A stretch of DNA of 64,000 bases from an uncultured Chloroflexia bacterium (lineage in GTDB: Bacteria > Chloroflexota > Anaerolineae > Anaerolineales > DRKV01), in contig CAWGNX010000002.1 in assembly GCA_963824065.1 (NCBI GenBank), positions 43,243 through 107,242 of the forward strand, written 5' to 3'. Below the pieces are notes generated by a model. It was not told where the DNA came from. It worked only from the letters and a program-made list of their open reading frames with translations, and made no database searches. This document shows positions 5,639-61,495 of the stretch, in pieces. A program made the translations under genes and the position numbers. Position 1 is the stretch's first letter; the number at the start of each line of letters is the position of its first letter.

Positions 5639-5673
5639 CCCGCAGCGCGGGATCTAATTTAAAGGAGAAATTG

Positions 5674-12412: not shown

Positions 12413-12563
12413 ACCGTGATGAGATGGCTGGACTAGTGCAGGCAGTCAGCCTTCCGTGAAGATTAATAGCTTGTGGGCAGGCCTCCACGGGCCCAAGTGA
12501 TTCGAATCACAAATTCTCGAGCCGGTCGGGTGAAAACGATTTCTCTTCTCTGTGCATAAATTC

Positions 12564-16566: not shown

Positions 16567-16584
16567 ACGAAAGGCATCCCAATC

Positions 16585-17811
16585 ATGCCGCTTCCCTTCC
16601 AACAACTTGACCACCAGCAGCGGATCAAACTGATCGAATTATTCCTCACACTCATCCTGCTATGTTTAGCCACAGCTTTATTTTTATTCGCCCTGATTAA
16701 CCACTGGAACAACGACTTTATCCACCTCTGGCTGGGGGGGTACACATTCCTGCATGGCTCCGATCCCTATGTGCAGTTGTTGGCGGTGGGGAATATCCAC
16801 GCCAACGAAAGCACATTTATCAACCTGCCCTGGGTGGGACTTTTTTTTGTACCTTACGCGCTTTTACCATTTGAGACGGCTACCATTGCCTGGATTATCA
16901 CGAACGCCGCATTTTTGTTAGTGTGCCTAATCCTGGCTCAACAAATCCTCGCGGCGCGTCTCCCAGTTTGGGGCATCCGGCTGATCCAGCTTGGCATGCT
17001 CTTTTTATCCTTCCGCACATTTCAAGCGGCCCAAACAACAATCATCCTTACTTTTTTGGGTCTCAATGGGCTGCGCATGCTCCTGCGCCAGAATATTCCA
17101 AGTGCAGGAATTTGGTTTGGTCTGACGATCTTCAAGCCCACCATTTCGTTTGGATTGGTAGCTGCGGCAGTGCTGGGGATCAAACCCGAAAATCGAAAGA
17201 AATTCTTCCAATGGATCAGCATTACTGCATTGGTTATTCTGGGTGCAGCCACCTTGTTCTGGCCGAGCTGGATCAAGACATACCCCCAGGTCGATTTCAG
17301 GCAAACCTTTGGCATCCTGGAAAACGACATCTTTATTCATTATTGGCCCGTCGCCACAATCACAGATTTTACGATTTACGTTCTTGGGATCCAGCTCACC
17401 GGCCTGAATGCGTTCGCATTGAAACTTGTTCCATTGATGTTTGAGGTTGGGCTCATCGTTTTTGCATGGCAATTATTTAATAAAGGAAAATTAGAGTTGC
17501 TGGAATTATGTGCGCTGGGGGCGCTGCTGCCTGCCGTTGTATCCCCCTACATTCGTTATTATGATTATATTTTTCTCAGCATCTGGCTGGTTGGTTTTTT
17601 CGGGGGGTTAAATTTTAGCCAGGCATCGAAAACGATAAAATCGATCACCGTTTGCCTGGCAATTTTCACGTTCCTGATTTTGGCAGGAACGCACCCCGAG
17701 CCCTGGGTCTATCTTATGCCGGTCGGCTTTTCGCTTCTTACCTTTTTTGTATTGATTACTAGATCAAGCCCAACGAAGCTGTCGAACAGCGAGTCCACCA
17801 GTTTGGGGTAA
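16585..17811 (+). CDS. polytopic membrane protein, DUF2029/GT87-like (putative glycosyltransferase)
   Basis: 408 aa and more than 10 TM helices, 18 nt after the PIG-V-like gene. The assignment rests on topology and context only. Confidence 0.5.
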   Translation: MPLPFQQLDHQQRIKLIELFLTLILLCLATALFLFALINHWNNDFIHLWLGGYTFLHGSDPYVQLLAVGNIHANESTFINLPWVGLFFVPYALLPFETATIAWIITNAAFLLVCLILAQQILAARLPVWGIRLIQLGMLFLSFRTFQAAQTTIILTFLGLNGLRMLLRQNIPSAGIWFGLTIFKPTISFGLVAAAVLGIKPENRKKFFQWISITALVILGAATLFWPSWIKTYPQVDFRQTFGILENDIFIHYWPVATITDFTIYVLGIQLTGLNAFALKLVPLMFEVGLIVFAWQLFNKGKLELLELCALGALLPAVVSPYIRYYDYIFLSIWLVGFFGGLNFSQASKTIKSITVCLAIFTFLILAGTHPEPWVYLMPVGFSLLTFFVLITRSSPTKLSNSESTSLG

Positions 17812-17878
17812 TTTTAAGACAGACAGCCTGACAATTAGCTCGATTTTTTCTAATCGTTCTGTCGTGATCCGGTAAGCC

Positions 17879-18382
17879 TCACGGCACGTAAGGCGGCAGG
17901 TCAACCACGAAATATTCATCCCCCTGCGCGCGCACCGTAAGCCCAAAGATGGCCCGGGAGGGTATTTCTGTCTCGCTGGCGCCACAACACGGACCGAGCA
18001 CAAACAAGCTGCCATCCGGGTTGGAAAATTCCACCGTGAAGCGAAACACACCCTCATCCACCTGTTCTACGCTGGTAACCCGGCGCAACGCAAGGCACTG
18101 CAAGCCGTTGATCAGGCAGCCGGCTTCCAGCAGTGCGGCTTCATCCAGAGGATCCATCTCCGGGTTCATGTAGCGCAGGTCATCCAGCGGACCGGCATAC
18201 AGCCGGGCGGAAAGCTGGAAATCCCCGCTGTTCAAAGCAGCCAGGTAGGATTCCAGGGCACTCTGAGCAGCAGCAAATTCATCTTTCGGGCTGGGTGAAG
18301 GGGCGCTTAAGCTGCTACAAGCAGAGGCAAGCAGCATCAGACAGTTCAAGAACACCAAGCGGAGTTTCAAGGTTCTATCCAT
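17879..18382 (-). CDS. hypothetical lipoprotein
   Basis: Signal peptide with a lipobox (LMLLASAC|S). No family recognised. Confidence 0.6.
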   Translation of the reverse strand: MDRTLKLRLVFLNCLMLLASACSSLSAPSPSPKDEFAAAQSALESYLAALNSGDFQLSARLYAGPLDDLRYMNPEMDPLDEAALLEAGCLINGLQCLALRRVTSVEQVDEGVFRFTVEFSNPDGSLFVLGPCCGASETEIPSRAIFGLTVRAQGDEYFVVDLPPYVP

Positions 18383-28040: not shown

Positions 28041-29710
28041 ATGTTTCCAATCTCAAGGGCAGAACGGCACTGGGTGCTGTGGTTCGCTCTGGCTGTGATC
28101 ATCCTGACGAGCGTGCCTTACCTGGTGGCAGCAAGTTCCCAGGGGGCCGACTGGCGCTTTACCGGTTTTGTTTTTGGGGTAGAAGACGGCAACTCCTACA
28201 TCGCCAAAATGCTCAGCGGGGCGCAAGGAGCCTGGCTGCTGCACACCCCCTACACTGCTTTGCCCCAAAATGGAGTGCTGGCGTTACTGCCTTACATATT
28301 ATTGGGCAAGCTCAGTGCGCCCCCCGGGCAGCACGAACAACTGGTTGCCCTGTTCCACTTATTCCGTGCACTGGGTATCTGCCTGTACTGCCTGGCAACG
28401 TATGATTTTCTGGCCTGGTTTATCCCCGGAACCTGGCTGCGGCGAATAGGGTTGGTGCTGGCGGCGCTCGGCGGCGGGATGGGCTGGCTGGTTTTATCCC
28501 TGGGCCTGAACGAAACCCTAGTCAGGCTGATTGGCGGGACTGCGCCCGGATTGGACCAGCCCCTGGCTTTTTACTCCCCCGAGACGTTTGGTTTTTTAAT
28601 GCTGTATGGCTTACCGCACCTGGCGGTAGGTAGGGCGCTGCTGTTGTGGGGTCTGCGGGCTGTGCTGTCGGGAGCCGAATGGCTGCGCCTTCGACCTGCG
28701 CTGGGGCGGCTGCCGTTCCATGTACCCGGAGCGGGCGTACTGGCTGGGTTGTGTTTCCTGGGTTTGGGCATGATGCAGCCGCTGACTGTGGTCAGTGCGT
28801 GGGTAGTATTAGGCGCGTTCGCGGCGGCTGTACTGTTGGTCACCCGCCGCTGGGCAGCTCTGCGCAGCCCGCCTTACCTGGATCGAATCCTGTGGGCGGG
28901 GGTTATCTCAGCCCCACTGGTGATTTATAACCTGGCTGCGTTTACACTCGACCCGGTCGCCAGCCGTTGGGCAGACCAAAACCGGATCATTTCTCCCCAT
29001 CCGCTTTACTACATTTTGGCCTTCGGGCTGCTGCTACCGTTTGCTGTGCTGGGAGCCAGGCGATTGTGGCGGGCGGTGGGCGTGCCGGGCCTGCTGCCGG
29101 TTGCCTGGGTTGTGATCTTTCCCCTGCTGGCCTACCTGCCCTACAACTTGCAGCGGCGCCTGCCAGAAGGGGTCTGGACAGCCTGGCTGGTCCTGGCTCT
29201 GGCGTCTGTCGCCGGCTATGCCGGGCAGGCCAGGGTGTCGCGCCGCCGGCAAATTTTCCTGGCAGGTGCCGGAGCGGCTGCCCTTGGTTCAACATTGATC
29301 CTGCTGGTGGGCGGGTTGTTCAGCGCCTTTCAGCCGCAGATGCCCTTGTTTCGCCCGCAGGAAGAAGTGCGCGCTTTCGAGTGGCTGGCGGAAAACGCCC
29401 TCCGGGGGTCGTGGTGCTGGCGGCTTATACGACCGGCAATGCGCTGCCGGCCTGGGCTCCCGTGCGAGTAGTAATCGGGCACGGGCCAGAATCCGTAGAC
29501 CTGGCAGCCCTTGAGCCACGCGTCGCTGATTTTTTTGCTGCAATTGGCACGAATGAGGCGCGCCTGGAACTGCTGCATCAATTTGGGGTTGAATATGTGT
29601 TTTGGGGTCCCGCCGAAAAGGACCTGGGGAACTGGAACCCTTCAAGCGCCGGGTTCCTGGAGGAAGCAGCCCGGTTCGGGGATTACCTGATCTTTCGGGT
29701 TTTACCCTGA
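28041..29710 (+). pseudogene. polytopic GT-C-type (ArnT/PMT_2-like) membrane protein with one frame break
   Basis: ORF 28041-29471 (multi-TM) and the tail of ORF 28967-29710 (VVVLAAYTTGNALPAWAPVRVVIGHGPES...YVFWGPAEKDLG) join as EWLAENA|PPGVVVLAAY. The break is at the CCC/GGGGG runs at 29398-29408. Confidence 0.65.
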
Positions 29711-33530: not shown

Positions 33531-34785
33531 ATGACGGGAAAAGCTTCCAGCACGATCTACCCCCTCTCCGCCCTGAGAGCGGTCGTGCTGCATACCCAGC
33601 TCCTCACGACACCTGATGGGGCATCACCTGCCCCCACCCCCGAGACCATCGTCGACCTGGTGAAGGCGCTCGGCTATGTGCAAATCGATACGGTGCACGT
33701 GGTCAACCGCGCTCAGTACGTTACCCTGTGGGCGCGTTTCGGAGCGTATGGCATGGACGACTTCCACAAGCTGCTCTATACCCCCAATCAGCGCATACTT
33801 TATGAGGGTTGGGGGCATGCTGCCAGCATCATCCCGCTGGAAAATTATCGCTACCATAGGTGGCGGACAGATCGGAGCATCAGCTACAACCCCAGCTTTC
33901 ATGAATGGGTGAATAAAAAAAACAATCGCGAACTGGCTGAGCAGACCTTGGAGCGCATCCGCACGGATGGTGGGCTGCGCGTTGGGGATTTCGAGCACAA
34001 AGGTCCCGAAAAAGGTGTGTGGTATGACTGGAAGCCCTCCAAGATGGCGCTGGAGGCGCTGTTCGCCTGGGGCGACCTGATGGTGGCGGATCGCGTGAAC
34101 TTCCAGCGCGTATATGATATCAGGGACCGCGTGCTGCCAGAGTGGGTTGACACCACGCCTGTCGATCCCGATGAGGCGCTGCCGCTTCTGCCTGGAACAG
34201 GCAGCGAAGTCGCTTGGTGTATTCGAGCCGCGCCATCTCACCCTTTACGCTTACATGAAATCTACGCCTGCCCAATTGATGATCAAAACCCTTATCAAGG
34301 AAGGCGTGCTGGTCGGGATTCGGGGTGAGTCTATGAACGGCGTTAAAACGTGGCTGGTGCATCGCGACAACCTGCCGCTGCTGCAGCGAGCTGCCGATGG
34401 CGATCTTAAAGCGGAACGCACCACCTTTCTTGCCCCTTTCGATTCGCTTTTCTGGGCGTGGGATCGGGATCAAAAACTGTGGGGCTTCAAGCAGCTGCTG
34501 GAGTGCTACAAGCCTGCTGCAAAGCGAGTCTATGGGTACTTCTGCTTCCCGATCCTGCATAAGAATCGGCTGGTAGGGCGTTTCGATCCGAAACTGGATC
34601 GCAAATCCGGTGTGCTGAATTTGAATGCCCTCTACCTTGAGCCGGGCATCGAGCCAGAAGACGAGCTTGTCGCGGGAGTCGCCTCTGCTATGCGCAGCTT
34701 CCTAGCATGGCATGGCGCGCAGAGTCTCAACATCGTGAAGAGCGATCCATCAGCGTTTGGCGAAAAACTGCTGAGCGCCCAGTAG
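33531..34785 (+). pseudogene. AlkZ/YcaQ-like winged-helix DNA glycosylase with one frame break
   Basis: LGYVQIDTVHVVNRAQYVTLWARFGAY...ILYEGWGHAASIIPLENYRYHRWR in the N-half, and FLAPFDSLFWAWDRDQKLWGFKQLLECYKPAAKRVYGYFCFPILHKNRLVGRFDPK in the C-half, are the YcaQ-family signature. The frames join near 34176-34186. Confidence 0.8.
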
Positions 34786-36168: not shown

Positions 36169-37380
36169 TTATTCGATGTGCGGCACCCACCACAGGCCAA
36201 TGTTGTTTTTCGTACCACCGTTGGCATCGACAATCAAGAAGAGTTCAATCGTCTTGCCGCTCAAGAAAGAAAGGTCGACATTCACCGTGGTGTACTGCCC
36301 ATCGTAGACCTCGCGCCAGCTGCCCAATTCAACCATCTGCCCGCTGCCTTCGCGATACGCCAGGCGGAAAATGATGTCACAGCCCTTGGTGTTATCGCCG
36401 CACATCACACCGGCTTTGAAGCGATACCCATTCTGGATGCGGATGCCCCCAAATCGGCCCTGGATGTAACCGTTATTTTTGTTATTGGGGACGACTTGCA
36501 GAGCAGGTTCGTTTTCGAGGCGACCGGATTCGAGCACCGGGTTATCGAGGATGTTCACAGATCCATCGGCGCTGCCCGAAACGCCCGGACAGGGCAGCCG
36601 CGATTGCGAGCCGCTGCTCCATTCACCGTCACAAACACTGTAAACAAAGTCGTATGCATAATTTGAGTTGACTTCCGCCACTCTGATCTGGACCCAGAAG
36701 GGATTGTTATAGCTGCTGCCAATCCCAAACAGGTTACCTTGCGGATCGCGCAGCATCCAGTTGCCGCGGTATGTGCCAGCATGGTTGGGGGCGACCAACT
36801 CGACGCTCAGGTCGACGGACTGGCCCGGGAGAACATTGATAGCCAGCCCGAGAACATTCGGAGCACCCATTCGCTCACCGCTGACAAACGCCAGGGCGTA
36901 CTGTGATGTCCAGGTGCAGGTGCCAACGTTCCGCAAGCGCCAAACTTTTGTGAAGCGTGCGTTCGGTGGGAAGATTGTCCCGTCTGGAATGGTCACATCG
37001 CTGACAAACTGGGCTGCATTACAGGGCAGCGGGTTCAGCGTCGGCGTAAAAGTGGCTGTCGGCCGCGGTGTGTTTGTGATCGTGGGGGTCGGGCTGGGCG
37101 GTTCCGGGGTGAAGGTCAGGGTTGGTGTAGGTGTCAGGGTTGCAGTGGGAGCCGTATTGGTCAGCTCCGCTGCCACCGTTTGGGCTGCCTGAGTCATGAT
37201 GGCATTCACATCCGGAGCAGCAGCCGTCTGGGTGAGATCGGCAATGACGGTCTGGGCAGCCTGGGTGTACACCGAGGCTGCGTCCGTAGTTGGCGGAGCC
37301 TGGGTACCCAGGTTGCAGCCTGCCAACAGCAGCGCAAGCAAGATGATAAACGGCAGCAGATATTTCCGGGTGTTCCTCAT
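36169..37380 (-). CDS. lipoprotein with Pro/Thr linker and NBR1-like Ig domain
   Basis: GAGGAG precedes ATG 37380. Lipobox LLAGC. FVSDVTIPDGTIFPPNARFTKVWRLRNVGTCTW...GQSVDLSVELVAPNHAGTYRGNWMLRDPQGNLFG resembles the NBR1-like domain. Confidence 0.65.
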   Translation of the reverse strand: MRNTRKYLLPFIILLALLLAGCNLGTQAPPTTDAASVYTQAAQTVIADLTQTAAAPDVNAIMTQAAQTVAAELTNTAPTATLTPTPTLTFTPEPPSPTPTITNTPRPTATFTPTLNPLPCNAAQFVSDVTIPDGTIFPPNARFTKVWRLRNVGTCTWTSQYALAFVSGERMGAPNVLGLAINVLPGQSVDLSVELVAPNHAGTYRGNWMLRDPQGNLFGIGSSYNNPFWVQIRVAEVNSNYAYDFVYSVCDGEWSSGSQSRLPCPGVSGSADGSVNILDNPVLESGRLENEPALQVVPNNKNNGYIQGRFGGIRIQNGYRFKAGVMCGDNTKGCDIIFRLAYREGSGQMVELGSWREVYDGQYTTVNVDLSFLSGKTIELFLIVDANGGTKNNIGLWWVPHIE

Positions 37381-37810
37381 TTTGTTCTCCTCGCCGTACA
37401 GGCAGTTCGTTTGAGCGGCCTGGATTGGGCTTTTCCTCGTGTTACTGGCGAATAATCGGTGCCTACCAGGACGGTTTTTCGCCATGAATTATTCTCGCAA
37501 GGGTACGAGCAACCGTCCGGAATATTTTTTCGGGCCAATTTCGGTCCATCTATAAGATAGAACGAAACCCGACGCATGGCAAGTACCTGTGCATCCTTGT
37601 ATGGCATAGACGTGTGAGCGGATATTTTCGTTCCAATCCAATCCCAAATTACCGGTCAAATGGTACTTTTCGTCCATTTACATAAACCAGCGAGCGAAGT
37701 ATGTTAAAATCACCTGCCAAAACTAACAATTATGCAAGGTTAGCTATCGTGCAGGCAACACTGCACCCTTGATTGGTGTGTGTTTCTTAATGGAGAAATA
37801 AGGAGAATTT

Positions 37811-39167: not shown

Positions 39168-40089
39168 TCAAATCACCTCCCCGGTGCGCACGATCAGCAC
39201 AGAGCAGCCAGCATAATGGAGGAGCTTGCGGGAGACGCTGCCCAAAAGCCAGCCGCGCACCTGCCCGAGGCCGCGGCTGCCGGCAATGATTAGATCGATC
39301 TCGTGCTCACGGGCGTACTCGATCAGCTCGCTGGCGGCATCCCCTCGCAGAAGGACCGGGACGGCCTGCAAGCCAGCCCGCTCAAGGCTGACGGTAGCAT
39401 CCTCAAGCAGGCGGCGACCTTCTTGCTCCTCCATTTCTGCCTGGCGTTGAAAACCTTGTTCAATCTCTGCCAGGGGCATCCCACCTGAGACCTGTAGGTC
39501 AAGCGGCCAGGAGCGGGCGATCACCTCCGATGTTGGCATCGGCGGCAGGACGTGGACAAGGCGCAGCCGGGTGTTGGCGGGAAATTGGAAGCTGGCGGAG
39601 TACTCGAGGGCACGCCGCGCCTGGGCGGAACCGTCGGTGAGCAGGGCAACCCGCTGCAGACCGGTGTACGGTGCCCGGACAACAAGGACGGGCCAACGGG
39701 CATATTCTACGACCTGCTGGGCCACACCTCCCAACAGGATCCCCAGGGTCAGCGCGCAGCCCTCTGGCACCAAGGACGATCAGCTCTGGCTGAACCTGAT
39801 CAGCATGCTGCACGATCTGCTCAGCAGGATAGCCAGTGAGAAGTTCTGTGATCACTACACAACCTTGCTGCTCCAGCAGATACCGGGCCTGTTCGAGAGC
39901 GTCCTCCAGCAAGGCGTGGGTGGAGGCCTGGCGCGGCAGCATCACTGCAACTACTCTGATCACGCAACCAGTCGCACAGGGCAGTTCGGACAGCAGCCGG
40001 GCAGCTGCCATGGAATGTTCGGATCCGTCGACTGCCAGCAGGATGCAGCGGCTGGTGGGGGTTGTGGAGAATGGATGTTCAAGGGTCAT
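39168..40089 (-). pseudogene. tandem universal stress protein (UspA x2) with one frame break
   Basis: ILLAVDGSEHS...ELIVLGARGL joins, in another frame, to TLGILLGGVAQQVVEYARWPVLVVR, which is followed by a second Usp domain (VALLTDGSAQA...DLIIAGSRGLGQVRGWLLGSVSRKLLHYAGCSVLIV). The break is near 39750-39765. Confidence 0.8.
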
Positions 40090-40370
40090 GGCGCACCTCC
40101 TGCACTTCGGGTGAGAAGCAAAATCCGCCGGACAACCTGGCGGATTACGATGAGGGCGGGTTGCGGGCAGACCGGATACAGGCTGCCTTCCGCGTGTATT
40201 CGATTTCTTTCATTGTACAAGGAACTTATGGACGAATCAAGGGAATTTTTGCCGCGTGTGAGCGTCCCGGAGGCTCAAAACATCTCTCGGGTCGATAAAT
40301 CACCGCCGGTGTTTATCCAGCAGCTGCGCCTGACCTGATCGCGCAGCTGCTGGGTTTACACGCTGGCTGG

Positions 40371-40667
40371 TCAGCGGCGGATCAGCGGTGAAAACACCTT
40401 AAACCGGTGTACACCTGTCCAAAAACCGCTTGTGACGACAAAATTCCCACCGGATGCGCGATTGGCGTCCGGCTGACCCAGCGTGCCGGTCAGCACGAAT
40501 ACGGATCCCTGGCTGCGCCCCCCACCTGCATCGACTGTCCACCAGGAAATACTGAAGTCGTCGGCAAGGTCAGATGCGGGCATAGAAATGCCCTCAGACC
40601 GGGCGGCACCAACCAGCAGCAGGCACACCAGGCTTGCGCCGAGAATGATTACAAGTTTATGCTTCAT
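40371..40667 (-). CDS. small exported protein, paralogue of 60235-60516
   Basis: Signal peptide MKHKLVIILGASLVCLLLVGAARS. It shares the motifs F-x-I-x-W, GGG, T-[LV]-G-Q, GFW and a C-terminal FKVFSPLIRR with the other copy. It lies 9 nt downstream of the fibre-like gene. Confidence 0.65.
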   Translation of the reverse strand: MKHKLVIILGASLVCLLLVGAARSEGISMPASDLADDFSISWWTVDAGGGRSQGSVFVLTGTLGQPDANRASGGNFVVTSGFWTGVHRFKVFSPLIRR

Positions 40668-40676
40668 GCCAGCCGC

Positions 40677-42107
40677 CTAGCGCAAGGTGACGAAAACCGG
40701 AATGGTGGACTGACCCGGGACCGGTGCGCTGAGGGCGACCCCGATGACCGGCGCACCTTCGGTTACGAGCATGCCGTTCACTTCCTGGCTCATTAACGGG
40801 CGGGCGTACCCGGCGAGGTTGGAGGCGGTCAGACGCTGCCCAGGCGTGATTTGGGCTGCGGGATCGACGTTCACCTCGGCGATGCCGTAGATGGTGAGGG
40901 CCACGTATTCACCTGGTTGGGCGGGTCCAGCGGCGCTGTGCAAAGCCATCTCGCCCTCCGCTTCCTTGCCGGGGGCGACCTCATACAGCATGCGGCTGCT
41001 GACTACCACGATCACCCCGTTAAAAGTGGCTGAATCGGCCAGGCGCACCAGCGGCATGGCGGCGCCTGTTACTGCTACAAGGTCACCCACATTCAATGGC
41101 TCGGGACCAGTCACCTGGCTGACCAGGGTATAGGCCTGGGCTAACCCGTTACCAGCCTGGATGTTATCAACCGAGTACAGCGCCCACTGGCCGGCGGCAT
41201 TGGCTGTGTTCGGCCAAAGGCCGTAGCCACTGACGCCCGGACTGGGGGAGTACATACCGTAACTGGGGAAATACGAACTGCTGCCGATCTGGATGCCATC
41301 GTCGCCCGTGTCGAAGATGCGAACGCCATCATTGTTGGTGGTGTTGCTGATCACCAGGCCGAAGTCCTGGCTGGGACCAATCCACAGCCCACCCTCATTC
41401 GGCGCTTTCAAGCGAATGCCGGCATTATAGAGCTGCCAATCCCCGGTAGTGCCGTCGTAGTAGGTCCAGGCGCGGAAGGAGCCGTTGGTGGCATAGCCGT
41501 AAAACGGCCAGCCGCTGGCATTGGATGTCTCGACATACATCCCGCCGTACTGGTTGTCACTCCCGTTGAAGCACACGCCGAACACTTCATTGCCGGAAAT
41601 GCGGAAATCGCGCCCGATCCCCACGAAATTGACGCTTTCATTGGTGTAGACGTTGGGCAGCGCCAGGGCATACGGCGCGGGCGTCAGCTCCTGGCGCGGG
41701 GCCAAAGTGGTGAAAGCGCCGGCACTGGCTCCTGGGCGCACATTGATCTCCAGCCAGCGTTCACCGCCGCCGAATGCGCTTACCCGAAATCCAGGTTGAC
41801 CTGGAAATAGCCGTTATCAACCGGCAGGTCACCGATCGTCTGGGTTGCACCTATCTGGACACCTGCAGCCGCGGCGTCAAACAGCAGGAACTGGAAGTCA
41901 AACGGGCCGTTGGCCGGACTGCCGCTGCTTTCCAGGTGACCCTGGTAGGTAAAGCCCGTGCCAACCGGGGCCAGGCTGGCACGAGGCAGCCCGCGGCTGA
42001 GGGCAATGCCAGCTGGCAGGCTGAAGGCCAGCAGGACGCCTGCCAGAATTGCCAAGAAAATCGAAAGATGGGGGTGGCGGTTTTTGGCCTGCTGTGCTCC
42101 TGAACAT
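40677..42107 (-). pseudogene. fibre-like exported protein (cassette A), two frame breaks
   Basis: Three frame segments join as MFRSTAGQK|NRHPHLSIFLAILAGVLLAFSL...GFTYQGHLESSGSPANGPFDFQFLLFD...YFQVNLDFG|SAFGGGERWLEINV...APRQELTPAPYA... The breaks are at T5 (42081-42085) and C3 (41783-41785). ATG 42173 is an alternative start. Confidence 0.6.
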
Positions 42108-42470
42108 GGGTGGGATAATTTGGATGGGTAGAAACCGGTCGTATTCCTGTTTAAATGGGGGATGCCTGGCCATTGCCAGGTTAAACCGGAGGACCCCCGG
42201 TCGAAGCTGGAAAAACAGCCGCAGTCAAGAAAAACATTGCTCAGGATGTAAAAATTATTCAGGCTAGTGGGAGTGATAGCGAGTTGTTGGTAGGTATTTT
42301 TGCAGGATCCGGCGGGCGGTGTGGGAGCGTGCAGCCGGGCTGTTGATCGTAAAGCGAGAAAATTTATAATAAAGACAAGAAATAGCGGATTTACAATACC
42401 AGTATAGAAAATTTCTTTAAAATTCAATCGCTCGATTTATCGAACGGCTGAAAACCAGCCTGTTACACAC

Positions 42471-43821
42471 TTATGATTGTTCTTTTGTGGAAATAAAAAA
42501 GTCGATCCAACTTTTGAAAATACCCCCCAGTAAAAAGATGCTGCCAAAAAAGATTAATTGCCTGAGGCCAATGGTTTCATTGATCTGCCACAGCAAGCGA
42601 ATATCATACAATTCTGGATCATTTAATTTTTCCCAGTCGATTAGGAAAGGGATCTCGGCGATTGGGTAGTGGTAGCTTCCATCAAATGCAATCTGCTCGG
42701 CAGCTGATAAACAGGTGAATAAGAGCGCTTGAAACGTTGCTATGGCGCCCAAAACCAGCAGCAATAGCAACAAGGCAAGTTTCCATTTTCTGAAGGCCTG
42801 GTTTTGTTTGGTGAAAAAAACCAGCAAAACGAGATAGGGAATGTTTGGGATTAAGAATCTAGGCCCTCAACTGTAACCTGCATCCCAATCCTCCCAGAAC
42901 GAATACATCAATATACTCCCGAGAATGGTGCACAGGAGAATAATCCCGATCAGGCGGTCCTGCTTGATTAAGACTGCCAGCCCAAAGAAACTGAGAAAGA
43001 AGAGCGGGAAAAACAACAATAGCCCTCTTTCTGGACTCAAAATATTTCCAAGGAGGGCGGTAAACACGGCAATTCCATTGAAATTAAATTCGGATCCTGG
43101 CTGGTATCCCAAACCAAACCAGGATCCAAAGCGCATATAGTTGATATATTGATTCAAGACGAAAAAACCGATCACAGGCATTGCGATCCAAAGTAGATTC
43201 TTTATCCGATCTACCAAAGATAGAGGCTCGCCCTGAGGTTGGGGGTTTATAAAATAAGTCGCGACAACAAAAACAAGCACGGGAACCAATGCCATTTCTG
43301 TGCGCGCGAAGGATCGTAAGTCCCAGAAAAGTGCCAGTTACAACCAGGTTGATTCTCCCGTGTGACCTAGCCCTTACAAAAAATATCAGCGCCAATACGA
43401 CGAATAAGGAAGCCAATGGTTGGGCAAAGTCGAGTTTTGCATACACTGCAGCGGGAGAGGCGATGCCAAAAATCAAGGCCGCGGCGACTGCTCGTTTTTT
43501 GGATAGTCCAAGCTGAATGCACAACCAGTACAGAAACATGGCAGTCAGTGCGGTGATTAGTGGATTTACAAAAGAACTGTAACGATACGTGCGATCGTAG
43601 AGGAGCAACTCGTTATACGGTATCCCAGGATCGTAGGGAGTGACGCTAAAATTAATATTCTTGAATGGAGGGAATGATGATAAGCCGGCTAAGATCCCCA
43701 TATAAATGAGAGTGAGTCCAATCGCCCACTTACTTACATCGATGACCGCAGGTCCCCACAAAATTGGGGGATTCATCCGAAAAGAACCGCGAAAAAACAG
43801 CGCTTTTGCATACTGAAACAT
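42471..43821 (-). pseudogene. GT-C-type (ArnT/PMT_2-like) membrane glycosyltransferase with one frame break and one in-frame TGA
   Basis: ORFs 43084-43821, 42867-43295 and 42471-42827 are consecutive parts of one polytopic protein. There is a frame break near 43299-43312. TGA 42869-42867 sits in EDWDAGYS*GPRFLIP. Confidence 0.65.
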
Positions 43822-44337
43822 GACAACCCCATCGATTGATTAGTGATGCCCAGACCAAAAAATGAGGTAAATCAACAAGCAGGTAAAAAAAACGGAAACC
43901 ATCAACCTCCAATGCTGCCAGTTTTTTGCAAGGGTCATGTAACATCTCGCACGAGCGATTGGAAATGCATAAGATGGTTTGACTTCAGGTGAGGTTGGGT
44001 ATCCAGATCACCAGGGTATTAAAACACGAAATCGATCAATAAAATGACCAATTTATGGACATTGAGAGAAAACGGGCAATCCAATTTCTGCGAACGTGCG
44101 TATATTAGACTGAATCATCGTTCCTGCGGTACGCAGGCCAAAGCCAGCCAGCGAATTGCAAGCGATTGGTTCTGATTGGCCCTTATCGGTTTCCTCCCAG
44201 TGTGTGCCCCCGCCCCCTCCAGGCGGGGGCCTTTGGTTTGGGAAGCTGGCAGCCTATACGCGGCAATAAACCTGCCCCTTGGACAAACATTGCAAAGGGC
44301 AATTGAATCTGCAATACTTATGAAACGTCAAAACCCG

Positions 44338-50202: not shown

Positions 50203-52226
50203 CTACGGTAGATGGGGTGGCGACAACAGCATGGTGGAGAAATTGGCTTCATCGACCCAGCCGGTCAGCTCACCGGCATCGACAAACCACCAGTAAGTGC
50301 CAGTTGCGTACACTCCATTGAGGGTGTTTTCGGGATCGGCGATTTTAAGTTGGCTTTCGACCGGCAGCAGGGCGAATGTGCCGTAATTGGTCCCGGGACC
50401 CTGGCGCAGGTGGGTCTCGCCCAGGGTGTAGACCACATCATCGGTATGGTAGTGACCGTTCTTGATCATGGGTTCGGCGACGATCATCGCCAGGCTGTTG
50501 ACCACAGGACGCTGGCAGATTCCGGTGCGGCTGGTTTCGCCGAGCACGTATCCTGAATTGAGCGCCAGGGCTGCGGGATCCAGCTCCTGCTGGGTCGAGG
50601 GGATGGCCGGGCCGGCAGGGGTTACGCCGCCTTGCCCAGCGGCTTCACCGGGCGGCAGCTCGCCGTCTGTGCCGCGCTGGACGGCGGTCAGGTAAACCTG
50701 GCGGCAGACCATTGGCAGGTAATCCCCGGATTGGGTCACGACCTGCCCGTTGATGTACATGGTAGTCGAGCCGCCGCCATCCAGGTTGGCAGCCCATTTC
50801 ACTTCCAGCTCATCCGCCAGGAACACCGCCAGATCGTCCAGGGTGATGCCCGTGCGCCCGCGGCTCCCATCGGCATTGATCACAGGGTGCCCTTCAGCGG
50901 CGACAAAGTAGATATAGTCGTCACTGGTAGCAATGGCGGTGCGCGGGGCAGGCCCGCCGCCAATCGTCTGCGGTTCTCCGCCGGAGACCAGGGTTGAGTC
51001 GACGCCAATCGCCGCGTAGGCCTCCGTCCAATCGCGGGCCGATTCCACCTTGCAGCGATCGGCTGAGCCATCCACGATCTTCATATTAATGCCCACCCAC
51101 AGGCCTTCGCGACCGCGGGTGTAATCCAGGAGCTTTGTGCCATTTACCCCGTAGGCAGACAGCACGATCTGATCGAAACCGATAGGCGCCGGGTCTTTAT
51201 TGACGCGCACCGCGACGATATGGCCCCAGAACTCGATCGTCCGTGAGCGGGTCTTCGACACCGGCGGGTACGATCAGCAGCGGGTTTTCCAGGCGCACGA
51301 CCACTTCCACACTCTGGGAGCTGGACTTGGGCGCCTGCCCGGTGGTGACACCGAAATGGGAAGTATACAGGAACAGACCCTGGTCAGTCGTGCGCGGGAC
51401 ATTGATGCCGCTGAGCTTGACTTCGCTGCCGGGCTGGGTCGGGTCGAGTAGCACAGTTTGCTCGTTGGGCGGGTGGCTGACACAACCGCCGATGAAGGCG
51501 CGCCGCCCCAGCGTCCAGACGAAGCCGGAGCGATTTTCATAATCTTTAAAGCGGTCGATATACCAGCCGCTCTGGACCATCCCCTGGTTGGGATACCCCG
51601 CCACGGTGATCGGGATATTGTTGTCGTCATTTTGATCCTGGAGATCAATCAGGCTGCCATTGATTGCCACCACGATGTGGTTGCGCTTGCCCCAGTAAGG
51701 CTCGCCGCCCAGCCCGGCATCCCCCCAAAAGTTCAGGCTGTCTTCGGCTTGTGCCACCTGCCCATCCACCCCCTGGAGCGCCCAGGGGACCAGTACCCCA
51801 CCGCCCTTGAGGGTATCCAATGTCAGGTGCGGGTACTGCGGGCCGCGGTTCATCCGGGCAACGTGGATGGGATCGACCGTGCCGGTGATGGCGGAGAATT
51901 GTCGGTAATCGATGCCCGGCTCCAGCTCCACCCAACCCGCGGCTGGATCGGGGCCAGGCAAGGCAAACGGGGCAACCCGGGCATTGGACTCGTTAAAAAT
52001 ACCTGGGGGCAGGGTACGGACCCTGCGGAGGTGGAGGCGGGTAGGCCTCCGCGGTCAGAGCAGGTTCGCCCGGGGCGGTCTGATCCAGGCTCTCGGAGGT
52101 GGGGAGCGCCGGAGCAAGGGTTAACACGGGAGGCAGCGGAGGCGTGCCTGAACAGGCCGCCAGGAACACGAGCAGCCCAACTGCACTGGCGAGCAGAAGG
52201 CGCGGCAGGCGCCGTGGGGCGGTCAT
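50203..52226 (-). pseudogene. phosphodiester glycosidase (NAGPA-like/DUF2233) + SH3b lipoprotein, paralogue of 52232-54112, two frame breaks
   Basis: A lipobox N-terminus (LAAC, 51993-52226), a middle part (51197-51961) and a C-part (50203-51261, with PRTAIA...NLDGGGSTTM and an SH3b tail) lie in three frames. The breaks are at G5 (52005-52009) and near 51236-51250. Confidence 0.75.
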
Positions 52227-52231
52227 GCGCT

Positions 52232-54112
52232 TCAGCGGCCCTCCGGAAGGAACCGCGCCCGGTAAATTTCGTAGGGTACCAGGGCGCGCTCATCCACCCA
52301 GCCCTGCGTTCCGTTAAATTCGATATACCACCAATATGCCCCGGTCGCATACACACCGTTGAGGCTGCTGCCGGGGTCGGCAATCTGGGTGATCGTGCCC
52401 AGCGGCAGCGGGCCAAAGGAAGCATAATTCAGCCCGGGGCCCTGGCGGATGGAGGTGGCGGTGACCGCTGCTACCAGGTCGGGCACGGTGTAGGCCTGCG
52501 ACTGCTGCATGGGGTTGACGACCACCATGGCGATGCCGTTGGGCACCCGGCGGTGGCAGCTCTGCCCGAAGGCGTAATCAACGGCTTCCTCCTGCACCTC
52601 CAGCGGGTCAGCCGGGGCCGGCAGGCGGCTGCCATTGTAAGGGTTCCAGGTGCTGCGGTAGCGGTAGGGAGTGGAGAATGGTTCTTCTGCCTCTACCGCG
52701 GCAGGCGGCGCAGCCTGCTGCGCGGCTGCGGCTGGCTTCAGGATGCCGGGGATGAAAGCCTGCGGGCAGTACAGCAGGTCGGTTGAATGGGTGACGGAGT
52801 AGCCGTCGACCACCATGGTCGATGACCCGCCGCCGTCCAGGTTCATGGCGGAATCGACGCCCAGGAACTGATCCATGAATTTACCCAGATCAAACATGCT
52901 GATCCCGGTGCGGTCGATGTAATCGCCCTGCTGGTTAAAGATGGGGTGTCCTTCGGCAACCACAAAATAAATGTAGCTGGCGCTGTAGCCGATGGCGGTA
53001 CGCGGCGCGACCCCGGCCCCGATGTTGACCGGTTCGCCGTTGTTCACGATTGTCTGCCCGCCGCCAAGGGCGGCATAGGTTTCGGTCCATGAATTCCCGG
53101 TGGGGGTGAAGCAGTCACCTGGGATACCGTCATTGATGCGGAGATTAATCCCAACGATGTCATTGATTTTGGCTTTGTCAAATATTTTGCTTGCACCGCG
53201 TCCATACCCGGAGAGGATTACCTCGTCAAACCCAATGTTCGCCGGCGGCGTGCCATAGGTATGGGTAAAGACATCCTGCGGCGCGTTCGTGCGGATATCG
53301 ACGATGGTTCCGGTGATTACACTGCCTGTGATGAACTCAGTTTCGCCTGAAGGGATTGCTGTAAGAGGTATAGGAAGTTGAACGAGCGCTTCCACCGTGT
53401 AATCGTACTCGGGCGGACGCGTTTGATCTGCGATGATGCCGTATTGGGGTGTGTACAGGTAGATGCTTTCGTCCGCACGGGGGACATTGATCCCGGCAAT
53501 TTTCACTTCATTGTCCGGATTTGGATTTAGAAAATCAAAAATAACTTTCTGCTCATCCGCGGGCTGTTTAACACAGCTGCCAATGAAGATATCCTTGTTC
53601 ATCTTATATACCAGGCCAGACCAGCTCTCATCATCTACATATTTCCAGTTGTACCAGCCGGACTGGAACTGACCCTGCGAAGGGATGAACGTGCTGGTAT
53701 CCCAATAACTGCCGTTGATCGCGGCCACAATGGTGCCGGTGGTGCCCCAATAGGGCTGCCCGCCGCTGCCCAGGTCGCCCCAGGCGTTGAGAGCGCCGTC
53801 CCAGTAGTCCACGTGCTTGTCCATGCCTGCCCCGGTCCACAGGTTGATCCCGCTGGTGCCCACCTGGATATAGCCCCCGGCGATGGTCGTGTCGAGGGTG
53901 ACGCTGGGGTTGCTGCGGTCCATGCGTGTGACGTGGATCGGGTCCTCCGTCCAGTTGGAAGGCAGCTCGGAGGGCTGGTAAACCCGGTAATCAATCCCGG
54001 GAGCGAGTGCTTCCCAATCGCCAGATTGGGCGTAGGCAGGGCCGGGCAGCAGGCTGGTGAGGAAACTTGCCAGGAGCAGAGCGGTCAGGCAGGTGGCGCG
54101 CTTTCGGTGCAT
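52232..54112 (-). CDS. phosphodiester glycosidase family protein (NAGPA-like/DUF2233) with C-terminal SH3b domain
   Basis: Signal peptide, PRTAIGYS...NLDGGGSSTMVV hallmark, and the SH3b-like tail SIRQGPGLNYASFGPLPLGTITQIADP...WWYIEFNGTQGWVDERAL. Confidence 0.8.
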   Translation of the reverse strand: MHRKRATCLTALLLASFLTSLLPGPAYAQSGDWEALAPGIDYRVYQPSELPSNWTEDPIHVTRMDRSNPSVTLDTTIAGGYIQVGTSGINLWTGAGMDKHVDYWDGALNAWGDLGSGGQPYWGTTGTIVAAINGSYWDTSTFIPSQGQFQSGWYNWKYVDDESWSGLVYKMNKDIFIGSCVKQPADEQKVIFDFLNPNPDNEVKIAGINVPRADESIYLYTPQYGIIADQTRPPEYDYTVEALVQLPIPLTAIPSGETEFITGSVITGTIVDIRTNAPQDVFTHTYGTPPANIGFDEVILSGYGRGASKIFDKAKINDIVGINLRINDGIPGDCFTPTGNSWTETYAALGGGQTIVNNGEPVNIGAGVAPRTAIGYSASYIYFVVAEGHPIFNQQGDYIDRTGISMFDLGKFMDQFLGVDSAMNLDGGGSSTMVVDGYSVTHSTDLLYCPQAFIPGILKPAAAAQQAAPPAAVEAEEPFSTPYRYRSTWNPYNGSRLPAPADPLEVQEEAVDYAFGQSCHRRVPNGIAMVVVNPMQQSQAYTVPDLVAAVTATSIRQGPGLNYASFGPLPLGTITQIADPGSSLNGVYATGAYWWYIEFNGTQGWVDERALVPYEIYRARFLPEGR

Positions 54113-57994: not shown

Positions 57995-58822
57995 TTAGAG
58001 CCGGGGTTGTTTCCTGCGCATCCGCCAGGCCCAGCCCAGCGCCGCGCCGAGTGAAGCCAGCACAGCCGGGCCCAACCATTCCAGGTTATTCTGGAAGAAG
58101 AGCTGGGCTGCCTGGACCGGGCTGACCTGCACCTCGATCTGGCGCTCGACTACCTGCAGGTCTTTTAAATCTTCGCCGAAGCCAGGGATTTTCACCCGGG
58201 CGGTGACCACCAGGACCAGGTTCTGGGTGCCAGAGGCACGCGGGGTGACGTCCCATGACCACTGCGTATAGGTATCACCTGCAACGATTTGTTCCTCAGA
58301 GCTAAGAGGCAGGATGTCGAATCCGCTGCCGGTCAGGTGGATCTTCATAAATGTTGCGACCTGCAGAGGTTCTTCGATGGGAGCGCCGATGCCGAGCAGT
58401 CCTCCGGACAGGGATTCGTCCGGGTTCAAGCTGATGCGAGCCTCAACCCGCTCGGGCAGACCATATTCCATTTGGGCAGGGGGATTGTACAGCAAGCGGC
58501 CCGTTTCCAGGCGGTCGAGTGCCTGCCGGGCGAGCAGCGCCGGGTCTGGGGCAGGTAAGGCTGCCGACTCCACAGCCGCGGATTCTTCCGCCGGAGCTAC
58601 TGCCGGTGCCTCTTCCGGTGCAGCTGCTTCCGCCGGAGCAGCTTCTTCCGCCGGAGCTACTGCTTCCGCCGGTGCTTCACCGGGCATCTCGGTGGGGGGG
58701 GTTGCGCCTTCCGGTGGAGCGGCTCCGCACCCAGACAGCCCGAGCAGCAGCACTACCAGGATGGGGATCAGCCGGACCAGCGGGATAGGGATGGTTTTTG
58801 GATTTCGGAGCGAGGAATTCAT
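57995..58822 (-). CDS. hypothetical lipoprotein with Pro/Ala/Glu-rich linker and C-terminal TM anchor
   Basis: Lipobox LGLSGC, APAEEAAPAEAAAPEEAP repeats, and a C-terminal LGPAVLASLGAALGWAW + RMRRK. Confidence 0.6.
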   Translation of the reverse strand: MNSSLRNPKTIPIPLVRLIPILVVLLLGLSGCGAAPPEGATPPTEMPGEAPAEAVAPAEEAAPAEAAAPEEAPAVAPAEESAAVESAALPAPDPALLARQALDRLETGRLLYNPPAQMEYGLPERVEARISLNPDESLSGGLLGIGAPIEEPLQVATFMKIHLTGSGFDILPLSSEEQIVAGDTYTQWSWDVTPRASGTQNLVLVVTARVKIPGFGEDLKDLQVVERQIEVQVSPVQAAQLFFQNNLEWLGPAVLASLGAALGWAWRMRRKQPRL

Positions 58823-59162: not shown

Positions 59163-60224
59163 ATGCGCACTATCCACAAAATAAAATTTCCTTTCTTCCT
59201 GCTCATGCTGTTTCTGATTGTGATCGGGCTGAGCGCACTGGCATTCGATCTATCGCTGGCTCAGGAACCCCAGCCCCAGCGCCCGGACCGATCCGATGCG
59301 CCGGAGGCCATCAGCGATTTTTTCCCGGTGCAGGGCTATCTGACTGATGAAAATGGTTTTCCTTTGAACGGCGATCAGGTGCTTACCATGCGGCTGTATG
59401 ATGCGAGCTCCGGCGGTACGGCCCTGTGCGAGGATACCCGCACGATTTCAGTGGTGGACGGATTGTTCAGCAAATACATGAATGCATCTACCTGCCCGAT
59501 GGACGGGCGTCAGCTCTACCTGAGCCTCGAAGTAAACTCTGATGGTGAGATGACTCCCCGCCAATTCGTGGATCCAGTGCCCTATGCCTGGACCCTGCGG
59601 CCGGGCGCCACCATCGAGTATGCGCGCGGCAGCGCGTTGCTAAATGTCTCAAACCTTTCAAACGGACCAGGTCTGGTGGCAGAGAGTGCCAGCGGGCCAG
59701 CGATCCGGGCCAGCGGAACAGGCATCATCCAGAGCACAGCGCCGACTTATCTCTGGATCAGCGGCAACGGGGCGCGCCCGTACATGCAGGCGGATTCAAC
59801 CATCATCGATATGGATAACAAAGGCGGGGCGATGATCTACCGGGGCGCGGCGGCGGGGAACAAGAATATCATGCTGCCCATCACCGTCCCAGGTACGCAG
59901 TACGGGCAAACAGCCCAGGTCACCGGGCTGGATGTCTACTGGTCTGGTCAGACGGAATTTGATGGGGTGACGGCTGTCCTGCTGCGGAGGCAGACCGGAG
60001 CCTGCCCCAACTGCTATGCGAGCATCCTGTTTGATACCTCAGACCGCTCCTGCGCGATCGCGGCTCAGCCGGCGGGCTGCATCCAGCATTTCGATTTAAC
60101 CACCAACAACACCTTGAGCAGCAGTTCGGGCGTGCTGTACCTGACGATCGAGTTCAGCTTCAGCGGCGCCTCCACATGGATCAACCTGGGCGGCGTGCGC
60201 CTGACCCTGGAATACGATGGGTAG
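59163..60224 (+). CDS. fibre-like exported protein (cassette B)
   Basis: AAGGAGG RBS and an N-terminal TM/signal (FPFFLLMLFLIVIGLSALAF). The module FFPVQGYLTDENGFPLNGDQVLTMRLYDASSGG...VVDGLFS...RQLYLSLEVNSDGEMTPRQFVDPVPYA is shared with 40677-42107. Confidence 0.7.
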   Translation: MRTIHKIKFPFFLLMLFLIVIGLSALAFDLSLAQEPQPQRPDRSDAPEAISDFFPVQGYLTDENGFPLNGDQVLTMRLYDASSGGTALCEDTRTISVVDGLFSKYMNASTCPMDGRQLYLSLEVNSDGEMTPRQFVDPVPYAWTLRPGATIEYARGSALLNVSNLSNGPGLVAESASGPAIRASGTGIIQSTAPTYLWISGNGARPYMQADSTIIDMDNKGGAMIYRGAAAGNKNIMLPITVPGTQYGQTAQVTGLDVYWSGQTEFDGVTAVLLRRQTGACPNCYASILFDTSDRSCAIAAQPAGCIQHFDLTTNNTLSSSSGVLYLTIEFSFSGASTWINLGGVRLTLEYDG

Positions 60225-60234
60225 GGGGTGGGCG

Positions 60235-60516
60235 ATGCACAGTAGACGGATTGCCTTTCTTATCGCAGCCCTTTGTCTGCTCCTGCTGCTGACTTCCGCA
60301 GTCCAGGCAGCGTCCTCGAATCATTTCCGGATTGATTGGTTGGTGCCGCTCAGCGGGGGAGGCGGGGCAGCCAGCTCGGCTGGTTACGAACTTAAAGTGA
60401 CGGTCGGGCAAACCGGAATATTCCGTTCCACCAGCACAGGATACGCTGCCTCCCTTGGCTTTTGGAGCTTGATGGCGCAGGATTTTCCGGTATTTATGCC
60501 TGTCATCAAACGTTGA
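60235..60516 (+). CDS. small exported protein, paralogue of 40371-40667
   Basis: Signal peptide IAFLIAALCLLLLLTSAVQA, the shared motifs, and a C-terminal FPVFMPVIKR. ATG 60217, which overlaps the upstream stop, is an alternative start. Confidence 0.65.
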   Translation: MHSRRIAFLIAALCLLLLLTSAVQAASSNHFRIDWLVPLSGGGGAASSAGYELKVTVGQTGIFRSTSTGYAASLGFWSLMAQDFPVFMPVIKR

Positions 60517-60556
60517 GCCGCGTTCTCGCAATCGCCAATCGAATTCTGATTTCCCG

Positions 60557-60593
60557 CAGCACCCCGCCCCTGTCTGCGTGGGGCGGGGTGCTG
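60557..60593 (+). terminator. strong stem-loop after the small exported protein gene
   Basis: CAGCACCCCGCCCC-9 nt-GGGGCGGGGTGCTG forms a perfect 14-bp stem. The T tract after it is only weak. Confidence 0.5.
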
Positions 60594-60859
60594 TGGGCTG
60601 CTGATTGTTATTTACCCTGGCTGCCGGGAATACCGCTAAATCTGCAATCTGAAATGCGGAAAACTGCTTCCCAGGACTGGTTCGTTACGTCAATTGTGGG
60701 AAGGATCTGACCAGACAAGCGGGGGTATTAATTCTCGGATCGCATAATGCCTGAAAATCAGGTTTTGTTTCAAATTACCGCCTCGAGTTATTCAGGCTTG
60801 ACCCAACAGGCCAGGTTTGGTTATAACTGGTCTATACCTGTTATCCGGATGGAGAGTGT

Positions 60860-61372: not shown

Positions 61373-61375
61373 AAC

Positions 61376-61495
61376 CTGGCGGGATACCTGGCGGGATACC
61401 GGGCGGGATACCGGGCGGGATACCGGGCGGGATACTTGGCGGGATACCGGGCGGGAGAACCGGCGGGAGAACCGGCGGGAGAACCGGCGGGAAAA
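61376..61495. repeat. 12-bp tandem repeat, 10 copies (6x ..GGCGGGATAC, 4x ..GGCGGGAGAA/AAAA)
   Basis: Read directly: CTGGCGGGATAC x2, CGGGCGGGATAC x3, TTGGCGGGATAC, CGGGCGGGAGAA, CCGGCGGGAGAA x2, CCGGCGGGAAAA. It starts 4 nt after the GNAT stop. Confidence 0.9.

Follow-up and report, generated by a model that had tools for sequence, protein, structure and literature searches.

A two-gene cassette, which encodes a large exported protein and a small exported partner, is found twice in the stretch of DNA analyzed here (the window), 64,000 nucleotides (nt) of contig CAWGNX010000002.1 from an uncultured Chloroflexia bacterium. Several described systems come close to one or the other part of it. 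NCBIfam contains two models of a putative sorting motif, the YLP box (NF050076, sort_motif_YLP, and NF053834, ultrashort_CTERM); proteins of this kind carry the same motif as the family of the small protein, at the extreme C-terminus and after a signal peptide. The donor-strand Pam pilus of Candidate Phyla Radiation (CPR) bacteria has PamT as its predicted tip pilin; a "tail fibre-like protein" is conserved near the pam operon, and the pilins PamA and PamB are reported from CPR bacteria only (bioRxiv 10.64898/2026.03.03.709456). A signal peptide with a short proline signature at the opposite end of the protein is also characteristic of the LPXTG/sortase, PEP-CTERM/exosortase, PGF-CTERM/archaeosortase and MYXO-CTERM/myxosortase systems. 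The large protein resembles phage tail fibre and capsid cement proteins in the fold of its C-terminal head, a likeness that is known for the head of copy A type (A-type) only. A search of the accessible literature gave no relevant paper on the cassette, on the module of its small protein, on the YLP box or on sorting signals of Chloroflexi; the NCBIfam motif models are the only description. The cassette, with its exported surface proteins, C-terminal putative sorting signal and phage-like fibre fold, is undescribed.

The two copies are paralogous and have the same layout, as a preliminary description of this DNA had proposed. Copy A is at positions 40371–42107 on the minus strand and copy B at 59163–60516 on the plus strand. 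The N-terminal module said to be common to the two large proteins (N-module) is found by BLASTP, with 31% identity over 129 amino acids (aa) and an E value of 4e-7. The small proteins of the two copies are 29–33% identical (BLASTP, E 5e-7 to 7e-6). The window has no third copy.

The pair is conserved in other genomes. Adjacency of the two gene families in related genomes had been named beforehand as the test on which the proposal should stand or fall, and a large gene with the N-module was found directly upstream of 64 of the 66 small genes that were counted in other genomes, each with at least 1 kb of upstream sequence; the two unpaired genes are on fragmented contigs. A pairing that recurs this often exceeds what chance would give. 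The gap between large and small gene is 7–37 nt, mostly 9–16 nt, and one pair overlaps. Loci retrieved by way of the large protein (L001, L003, L004, L006 and L065) all have a gene of 93–103 aa located 8–14 nt downstream. There are also tandem arrays, in which every large gene is paired with a separate small gene; a divergent Cys-rich subtype is among these partners. The scan took one genome per species with the majority small-protein subtype, which gave 58 loci and a bias towards B-like small proteins; all 58 belong to Chloroflexota (Anaerolineae, Thermoflexales, Caldilineales, Promineifilaceae and others). The A-type large family has more than 460 matches and the B-type family 238, and every named match is a hypothetical protein from Chloroflexota/Anaerolineae. 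Both types are present together in one assembled genome, GCA_048499655.1, and several copies of the cassette are possible per genome.

Comparison of the two families shows that they have diverged together. Distances between N-modules correlate with distances between the small partners (Mantel r 0.79, reached by none of 2000 permutations; r 0.38 within B-types alone), and the small partners of A-type proteins group together across genomes. This joint divergence is consistent with cognate pairs. A conserved, exported and co-transcribed pair is well supported.

The divergent third subtype of small partner has a Cys-rich box, CCC[TS][FY]LPC[VI]L, and its module also differs (..TWY.VERG..). This subtype is present in L013 at positions 11314–11634 and 9261–9542 and in L063 at 5077–5703, sits behind large genes whose heads end in ..ILVLVTLQ, and is partly missed by the small-protein profile.

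The features of the two copies in the window are the following.

40677–42107, minus strand: copy A large gene, A-type, about 476 aa after repair (intact homologues about 482 aa)
42023–42107, minus strand: start codon and signal peptide or signal-anchor of the copy A large gene, MFRSTAGQ.. / ..HLSIFLAILAGVLLAF, with a probable frameshift between the two parts
41667–41956, minus strand: copy A N-module, GFTYQG ... PAPYA, the beta-sandwich base common with copy B, interrupted by a frameshift at about 41780–41783
41136–41666, minus strand: copy A middle region, strongly conserved, with many Gly and aromatic residues, no confident monomer model
40680–41135, minus strand: copy A C-terminal head, with a fold like that of phage capsid cement and tail-fibre end domains and a 9-aa in-frame deletion at about 41063
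40371–40667, minus strand: copy A small partner gene, 98 aa, 9 nt after the large gene
40596–40667, minus strand: signal peptide of the copy A small partner
40413–40556, minus strand: module of the copy A small partner
40374–40403, minus strand: degenerate YLP-type box of the copy A small partner, FKVFSPLIRR
40317–40353, minus strand: GC-rich hairpin with a 13-bp stem directly 3' of the copy A small gene, terminator-like, without a T tract
59163–60224, plus strand: copy B large gene, intact, 353 aa
59163–59261, plus strand: signal peptide of the copy B large protein
about 59319–59588, plus strand: copy B N-module
59589–60221, plus strand: copy B short stalk and B-type head
60235–60516, plus strand: small partner gene of copy B, 93 aa with ATG 60235 as the start
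60325–60468, plus strand: module of the copy B small partner
60484–60513, plus strand: degenerate YLP-type box of the copy B small partner, FPVFMPVIKR
60553–60597, plus strand: GC-rich, terminator-like hairpin with an 18-bp stem 3' of the copy B small gene (z = -4.9)

The hairpin of copy A has a z of -5.4, and none of 200 shuffled sequences gave an equally good fold. The spacing of 9 nt first given for copy A holds, and the overlap of genes first given for copy B most likely does not. The small open reading frame (ORF) of copy B encodes 93 aa from ATG 60235 or 99 aa from position 60217. The start is most likely ATG 60235, since it is 10 nt past the TAG of the large gene, behind a G-rich stretch and at a spacing typical of the homologues; with this start the two genes would be closely spaced without overlap. 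The genes that surround both copies in the window are chromosomal and unrelated (Usp, an EamA transporter, penicillin amidase, RidA and a GNAT-like ORF). With such neighbors and a hairpin behind each copy, each copy thus represents an independent two-gene unit.

The large protein consists of a signal peptide, the N-module of approximately 100 aa, a variable middle region and a C-terminal head. The middle region has Gly-rich repeats that vary in number between proteins. Hydrophobic N-termini with AxA-type cleavage sites are seen by inspection in both the large and the small proteins. The proposal of a variable head on a conserved base is borne out by 58 large proteins, which display at least six C-terminal head classes on one N-module, with head class mixed relative to N-module subtype. 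Neither window copy of the large protein has a Pfam, NCBIfam or PHROG match above cut-off; the head of copy A has a sub-threshold Pfam match to Phage_cement_2 (15.3 bits vs a cut-off of 24). A Pfam scan of 59 large proteins with diverse heads from other genomes revealed no domain, and the Peptidase_S74/intramolecular chaperone domain (PF13884) is absent by Pfam from these and from both window proteins. A likeness to "tail fibre domain-containing" proteins, suggested in the preliminary description, was not borne out in these searches, and no phage relatives were found. The companion statement that neither protein belongs to a functionally characterized family agrees with the Pfam, NCBIfam and PHROG searches.

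A relation of the A-type protein to phage proteins appears at the level of fold. A profile search of solved structures found no sequence-level relative of the A-type large family. Structure modeling with AlphaFold2 (AF2) was done on P0121, an 82% identical homologue, with an alignment of 68 sequences. The model displays a helix at residues 7–31, a beta-sandwich N-module at residues 46–136 with a predicted local distance difference test score (pLDDT) of 86–93, a middle region without confident structure and a C-terminal head with pLDDT 90–97. In Foldseek comparisons with the PDB the head matches phage capsid cement or decoration proteins of T1, FCWL1, TW1 and Pam3, with E values down to 4e-4 and target template modeling scores (TM-scores) of 0.55–0.61, in line with the sub-threshold Phage_cement_2 match. 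Comparison with BFVD gives 56 matches at E <= 1e-3, including phage tail, tail-fibre and preneck-appendage proteins. The N-module has generic beta-sandwich matches only. A fibre-like large protein is moderately supported; as first proposed in general terms, the fibre likeness stands for the A-type head.

The architecture is also like that of phage fibres, which are modular, with a conserved base, a variable distal head and a small gene behind. Both this gene order and the cement/fibre fold of the A-type head would fit a prophage or tailocin remnant, i.e., a tail fibre with its assembly gene. This is nevertheless highly improbable. Both proteins have signal peptides, unlike phage fibres, which are assembled in the cytoplasm, and the small partner has a putative cellular sorting tag. 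Phage genes are absent from the surroundings of both window copies and of the related loci, and the A-type family is 60–82% identical in hundreds of Chloroflexota sequences at chromosomal sites. The cassette proteins have no PHROGs match and show no sequence relation to phage families or genomes: no relatives were found in IMG/VR or in 50,697 GenBank phage records. A prophage origin was rejected on account of the missing phage context, the absence of relatives in viral databases and the presence of signal peptides.

The small protein belongs to a large family with at least 1,103 close matches. With clustering at 50% identity, an exhaustive profile search gave 9,559 clusters of small proteins, and 1,703 of these have E <= 1e-10. 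Most members are stand-alone proteins of 90–100 aa, with a mature form of about 70 aa. They consist of a signal peptide, a module of approximately 50 aa and a C-terminal box. By inspection, the signal peptide begins with a basic region, which is followed by a hydrophobic core and an AxA-type site, and the AF2 model shows a helix at residues 2–24. The module, W..GGGG..TxGQ..GxW, has invariant W, GG, GQ and GxW positions. Two cysteines that flank the GxW turn covary perfectly (85 sequences with both, 217 with neither and none with one, of 302), which fits an extracytoplasmic disulfide in an exported protein. An analysis of residue covariation, a weak test with approximately 200 effective sequences, recovered only this cysteine pair and showed no coupling between box and module. 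A profile search found no relative of the small family among solved structures.

The C-terminal box, [YFW][RK][VI][YF]LP[LVI][VI]x[RK], is followed by 0–7 trailing residues. Of 302 sequences, 299 have the Pro of the box and 280 the Leu in front of it. Relatives in the small family reach the curated cut-offs of NF050076 (15 bits) and NF053834 (10 bits) at the extreme C-terminus. The partner in L001 scores 15.7 and 14.2 bits, respectively, and others score 16.9–17.5 and 11.9–13.4 bits; in a scan of 36 small-family members, 6 match the models. The models describe the motif of 10–11 residues only, and the module of the small protein, its pairing with a fibre-like protein and any mechanism lie outside them. 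The degenerate boxes of the window copies are below the reach of the models.

The box has the order of a classical sorting signal, a Pro signature followed by hydrophobic and then basic residues. It differs from these signals in that the Pro is followed by approximately three hydrophobic residues and a single basic one. With only 4–11 residues behind the Pro there is no room for a membrane-spanning helix, and the box is therefore not a three-part signal of the LPXTG type. A second difference is that the tag in the cassette is on a separate small subunit and not on the fibre. No protease-like or sortase-like candidate for a sorting or processing enzyme was found among the conserved neighbors of the cassette, and we know of no enzyme that acts on the YLP box.

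The module and the box are also found in other surface proteins. The module is present in one to three copies directly behind the signal peptide of large surface proteins. Some of these have a signal peptide, module, passenger domain and YLP box, and others end in a membrane helix or in dockerin repeats. Proteins with the module only, with the tag only and with both all exist. Since module and box occur together around passengers, they appear to be a carrier pair, of which the small protein would be the form without cargo.

Among the surface proteins with repeated modules, P0363, P0364, P0370, P0372 and P0444 have two or three at the N-terminus and a membrane helix or dockerin-like repeats at the end. 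These N-terminal repeats resemble the usage of cell-wall-binding modules such as SLH domains.

The occurrence of the module and box in other proteins bears on a further explanation, that the small protein is an extracytoplasmic assembly chaperone or cap, which aids folding or trimerization of the large protein and then leaves or caps one end. A fibre gene with a small gene a few nt downstream is the classic layout of a phage fibre and its assembly protein, and the phage-fibre-like fold of the A-type head points the same way. In addition, every large gene has its own co-diverging partner, and the small protein alone is not confidently folded: the AF2 model of the mature form has a pLDDT of about 45 with 120 sequences. 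However, the C-terminal tag is common to unrelated secreted enzymes and passenger-carrying proteins, which suggests a sorted structural protein, and the tandem modules with which large surface proteins begin are unexpected for a chaperone. Sequence and profile searches also found no PHROG match and no similarity of the small proteins to any phage assembly protein. We consider a chaperone or cap unlikely.

The NCBIfam model of PamT (NF058579) is matched by 28 of 36 small-family members. The first approximately 50 residues of the mature PamT model resemble the module of B-type small proteins: B-type mature modules match PamT positions 28–78 without their signal peptide (E 1e-6 to 1.6e-4). The two are also alike in being Sec-exported appendage parts of bacteria described as, or assumed to be, without an outer membrane. 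The differences are considerable. PamT has 241 aa and a truncated immunoglobulin (Ig)-like domain, vs about 70 mature aa and a YLP-box end in the small partner. The PamT scores of the small proteins are 21–32 bits, far from the cut-off of 240 bits for a full-length match, and the match spans approximately 50 of 241 positions (5/28–78). A-type small proteins, including that of copy A, have no match to the PamT model. In contrast to the pam operon, neither PamA/B pilins nor the membrane-anchored PapD-like chaperones PamC/D are found among the neighbors of the cassette by a check with Pfam and clustering only, and the hosts of the cassette are Chloroflexota, not CPR bacteria.

The PamT matches could point to a pilin-like subunit, whose YLP strand inserts into the next module by donor-strand complementation, the mode of assembly in chaperone-usher pili and in the CPR Pam pilus; we regard this as rather improbable. 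In such a scheme, and with no greater confidence, a thin filament would carry the large protein at its tip and YLP-only proteins could dock to it. The mature small protein is unfolded in the monomer model, as an incomplete fold would be, and the existence of module-only, tag-only and combined proteins also fits. On the other side are the short and low-scoring PamT match, its absence from A-type small proteins and, in the same check of neighbors, the absence of a PapD-like chaperone, an usher or a PamA/B-type pilin. Tight translational coupling suggests approximately one small protein per large protein, without the large excess expected of a shaft subunit. An invariant Pro at the center of the box would be more in keeping with a site recognized by an enzyme than with a donor strand, and the weak covariation test gave no link between box and module.

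Together the two proteins probably make up a surface fibre or adhesin, and a two-part surface fibre is the most economical view of them. The reading that we favor, tentatively and with somewhat less than even confidence, is that the small protein serves as the cognate base or anchor subunit of the fibre. Of the roles first suggested for the partner, i.e., chaperone, cap or anchor, the last is favored in that the family ends in the putative sorting motif of NCBIfam. Also in favor of an anchor, the same tag ends the beta-helix proteins encoded next to the cassette in many genomes as well as passenger-carrying proteins, so that module and tag look like a carrier. The N-module of the large protein folds confidently in AF2, vs a small protein that does not fold alone, and this is counted as partner dependence. 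Large and small subunits would form a two-part appendage outside the cytoplasm of an Anaerolineae-like Chloroflexota bacterium. The large subunit is exported by way of a Sec-type signal peptide and has a constant N-terminal base and an exchangeable C-terminal head; translational coupling would produce roughly equal amounts of both proteins. They would meet outside the membrane, where the small protein would bind the conserved base of its own large protein. The YLP box, as a putative "ultrashort" sorting signal, would tie the fibre to the cell envelope by way of the small protein, and the variable head would point outward as the binding end. The pairing of the genes, their joint divergence, the export signals, the modular domains, the fold of the head and the presence of the tag are shown by the data; the anchor role, physical binding between the two proteins, a trimer, the action of the YLP box and a ligand of the head are inferred.

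Several points weigh against a separate anchor subunit of this kind or against the evidence for it. At least one large gene, at positions 1591–3120 in L030, has no small gene behind it. Linkage and joint duplication alone could yield the joint divergence of the two families. The N-terminal helix of the large protein might stay in place as a membrane anchor, which would make a separate anchor subunit unnecessary. The poorly modeled middle region of the A-type protein may reflect a shallow alignment (approximately 66% mean identity) and not a need to oligomerize. Phage cement and tail-fibre end domains are trimeric in phages, and a trimer of the large protein would follow from analogy of fold only. 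For the YLP box, the function goes back to a hypothesis of the database curators and is thus putative, and the small proteins of the window have no match to NF050076 or NF053834 at E <= 1. In their boxes, S-P (copy A) and M-P (copy B) replace L-P. The window tails align with the box column for column, and the invariant Pro and the final basic residue are maintained.

A broader reading takes the module and the YLP box as two halves of an unrecognized assembly or anchoring route of bacteria without an outer membrane; it is a doubtful one. That the box of one protein docks into, or joins, the module of another is also quite unlikely in our estimation. We have equally little confidence that small proteins, module-only membrane proteins and box-only enzymes would together assemble into fibres or scaffolds tipped by the phage-fibre-like large protein. 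Shared ancestry with the Pam pili of CPR bacteria, as an explanation of the weak PamT likeness, appears just as questionable.

A larger cluster surrounds the cassette in the genomes of many Chloroflexota (L008, L016, L023, L026, L035, L045, L051, L056, L058 and others). Upstream, NarL-type response regulators accompany a PDZ-HisKA_3 kinase, or a LuxR/MalT-type regulator of approximately 1000 aa is present instead. Downstream, the cassette is followed by genes for one to three secreted proteins of the right-handed beta-helix type, which have the same YLP box at their end. A recurring group of neighbors (F500) consists mostly of these YLP-box beta-helix proteins, together with one unannotated family of approximately 450–500 aa. 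Copies A and B in the window are without such regulators and beta-helix neighbors. The C-terminal tag, the weak link to PamT and the larger regulated cluster in other genomes are additions to the preliminary description.

Copy A is not intact in the assembled sequence. The large gene is split across two ORFs, 41780–42427, which covers the hydrophobic N-terminus and the initial two thirds of the N-module, and 40677–41741, which covers the remainder. DNA alignment with the closest homologue (L065) shows a 1-nt gap in copy A at about 41780–41783, with GGGT-AAGC in the window vs GGGCAAAGC in the homologue. The missing base at about 41782 results in a premature TAA (41780–41782) inside the conserved N-module. 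Two frame corrections had been called for in the preliminary description. On alignment the one at about 41780–41783 is certainly needed. The second, also of 1 nt and in the A5/C5 runs at about 42068–42084, is probable: according to the reading frames it would link ATG 42107 to the hydrophobic signal sequence, and the DNA alignment with the homologue is too poor at 42068–42084 to prove the frame change. There are also two in-frame deletions that no homologue shares, one of 27 nt (9 aa) in the head at about 41063 and one of 15 nt (5 aa) in the signal peptide of the small gene. After repair, the copy A large protein aligns end to end with intact A-type homologues of approximately 482 aa, at 60–82% identity. 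Outside of the frame breaks, copy A is 83% identical over its full length to an intact homologue. The locus in L065 has the order large gene, small gene, Usp, as at copy A.

These lesions could mean that copy A is a decaying pseudogene with real frameshifts and nonsense changes, which would make copy B the sole working cassette in the window. The premature TAA is in a conserved module, and at this site the window has a base change in addition to the missing base relative to the closest homologue. The deletions of 9 aa in the head and 5 aa in the signal peptide of the partner are absent from all homologues, and the copy A box is atypical, with Ser preceding Pro. On the other hand, both frame lesions are at short homopolymer runs, the identity to an intact homologue is high over the full length, and genes elsewhere in the window are broken as well. 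The tandem Usp gene beside copy A (39168–40089, minus strand) is split by a 1-nt insertion relative to an intact homologue of 306 aa. The AlkZ-like glycosylase gene at 33531–34785 (plus strand) is split exactly at Pfam profile position 171/172, the midpoint of the profile. Further same-strand ORF pairs overlap, e.g., at 12564–14668 and 28041–29710. This pattern suggests that single-base frame errors are a property of the assembly, which would be of an error-prone long-read type, rather than a sign of many pseudogenes. Because neighboring genes are frameshifted too, the lesions of copy A are probably due to assembly error, and gene decay is a somewhat unlikely explanation.

Several other features of the window are near the two copies or may concern the cell surface. 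A lipoprotein-type protein of 275 aa (..LSGC) without a Pfam match is encoded at 57995–58822 (minus strand), upstream of copy B and in the opposite direction; its Pro/Ala/Glu-rich region is encoded by 18-nt repeats at 58583–58678. A 12-nt tandem repeat, ACCGGGCGGGAT, with 9.9 copies and 92% matches, is located at 61374–61492, between an ORF that ends at 61372 (GNAT-like by sequence alone) and the RidA-like gene. Two islands of low GC content, 12001–18000 and 42001–44000, have a GC of 0.45–0.48 vs approximately 0.6 elsewhere in the window. The first contains a family 2 glycosyltransferase, and the second adjoins copy A upstream and encodes multi-pass membrane proteins without a Pfam match. In L004 and L006 a PMT/MptA-type glycosyltransferase is close to the A-type cassette, perhaps by coincidence. 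ORFs with NAGPA (phosphodiester glycosidase) domains are at 50203–51261 and 52232–54112 (minus strand), one of them with an SH3_3 domain; the two overlapping ORFs between them have no Pfam match. A protein of 438 aa at 36169–37485 (minus strand) has an N_BRCA1_IG Ig-like domain. The NAGPA-domain ORFs and the N_BRCA1_IG protein may represent further envelope or surface proteins.

Anaerolineae-type Chloroflexota are abundant filamentous bacteria of sludge, sediments and hot springs, and to our knowledge almost nothing is known of their surface structures. If the proposed two-part fibre is correct, candidate adhesin fibres would be named for these bacteria. The cassette would also provide the first concrete client-and-partner pair for the YLP-box "ultrashort" signal, which so far is a database annotation only. 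The swappable heads on a constant base would then represent a natural system for the diversification of binding specificity.

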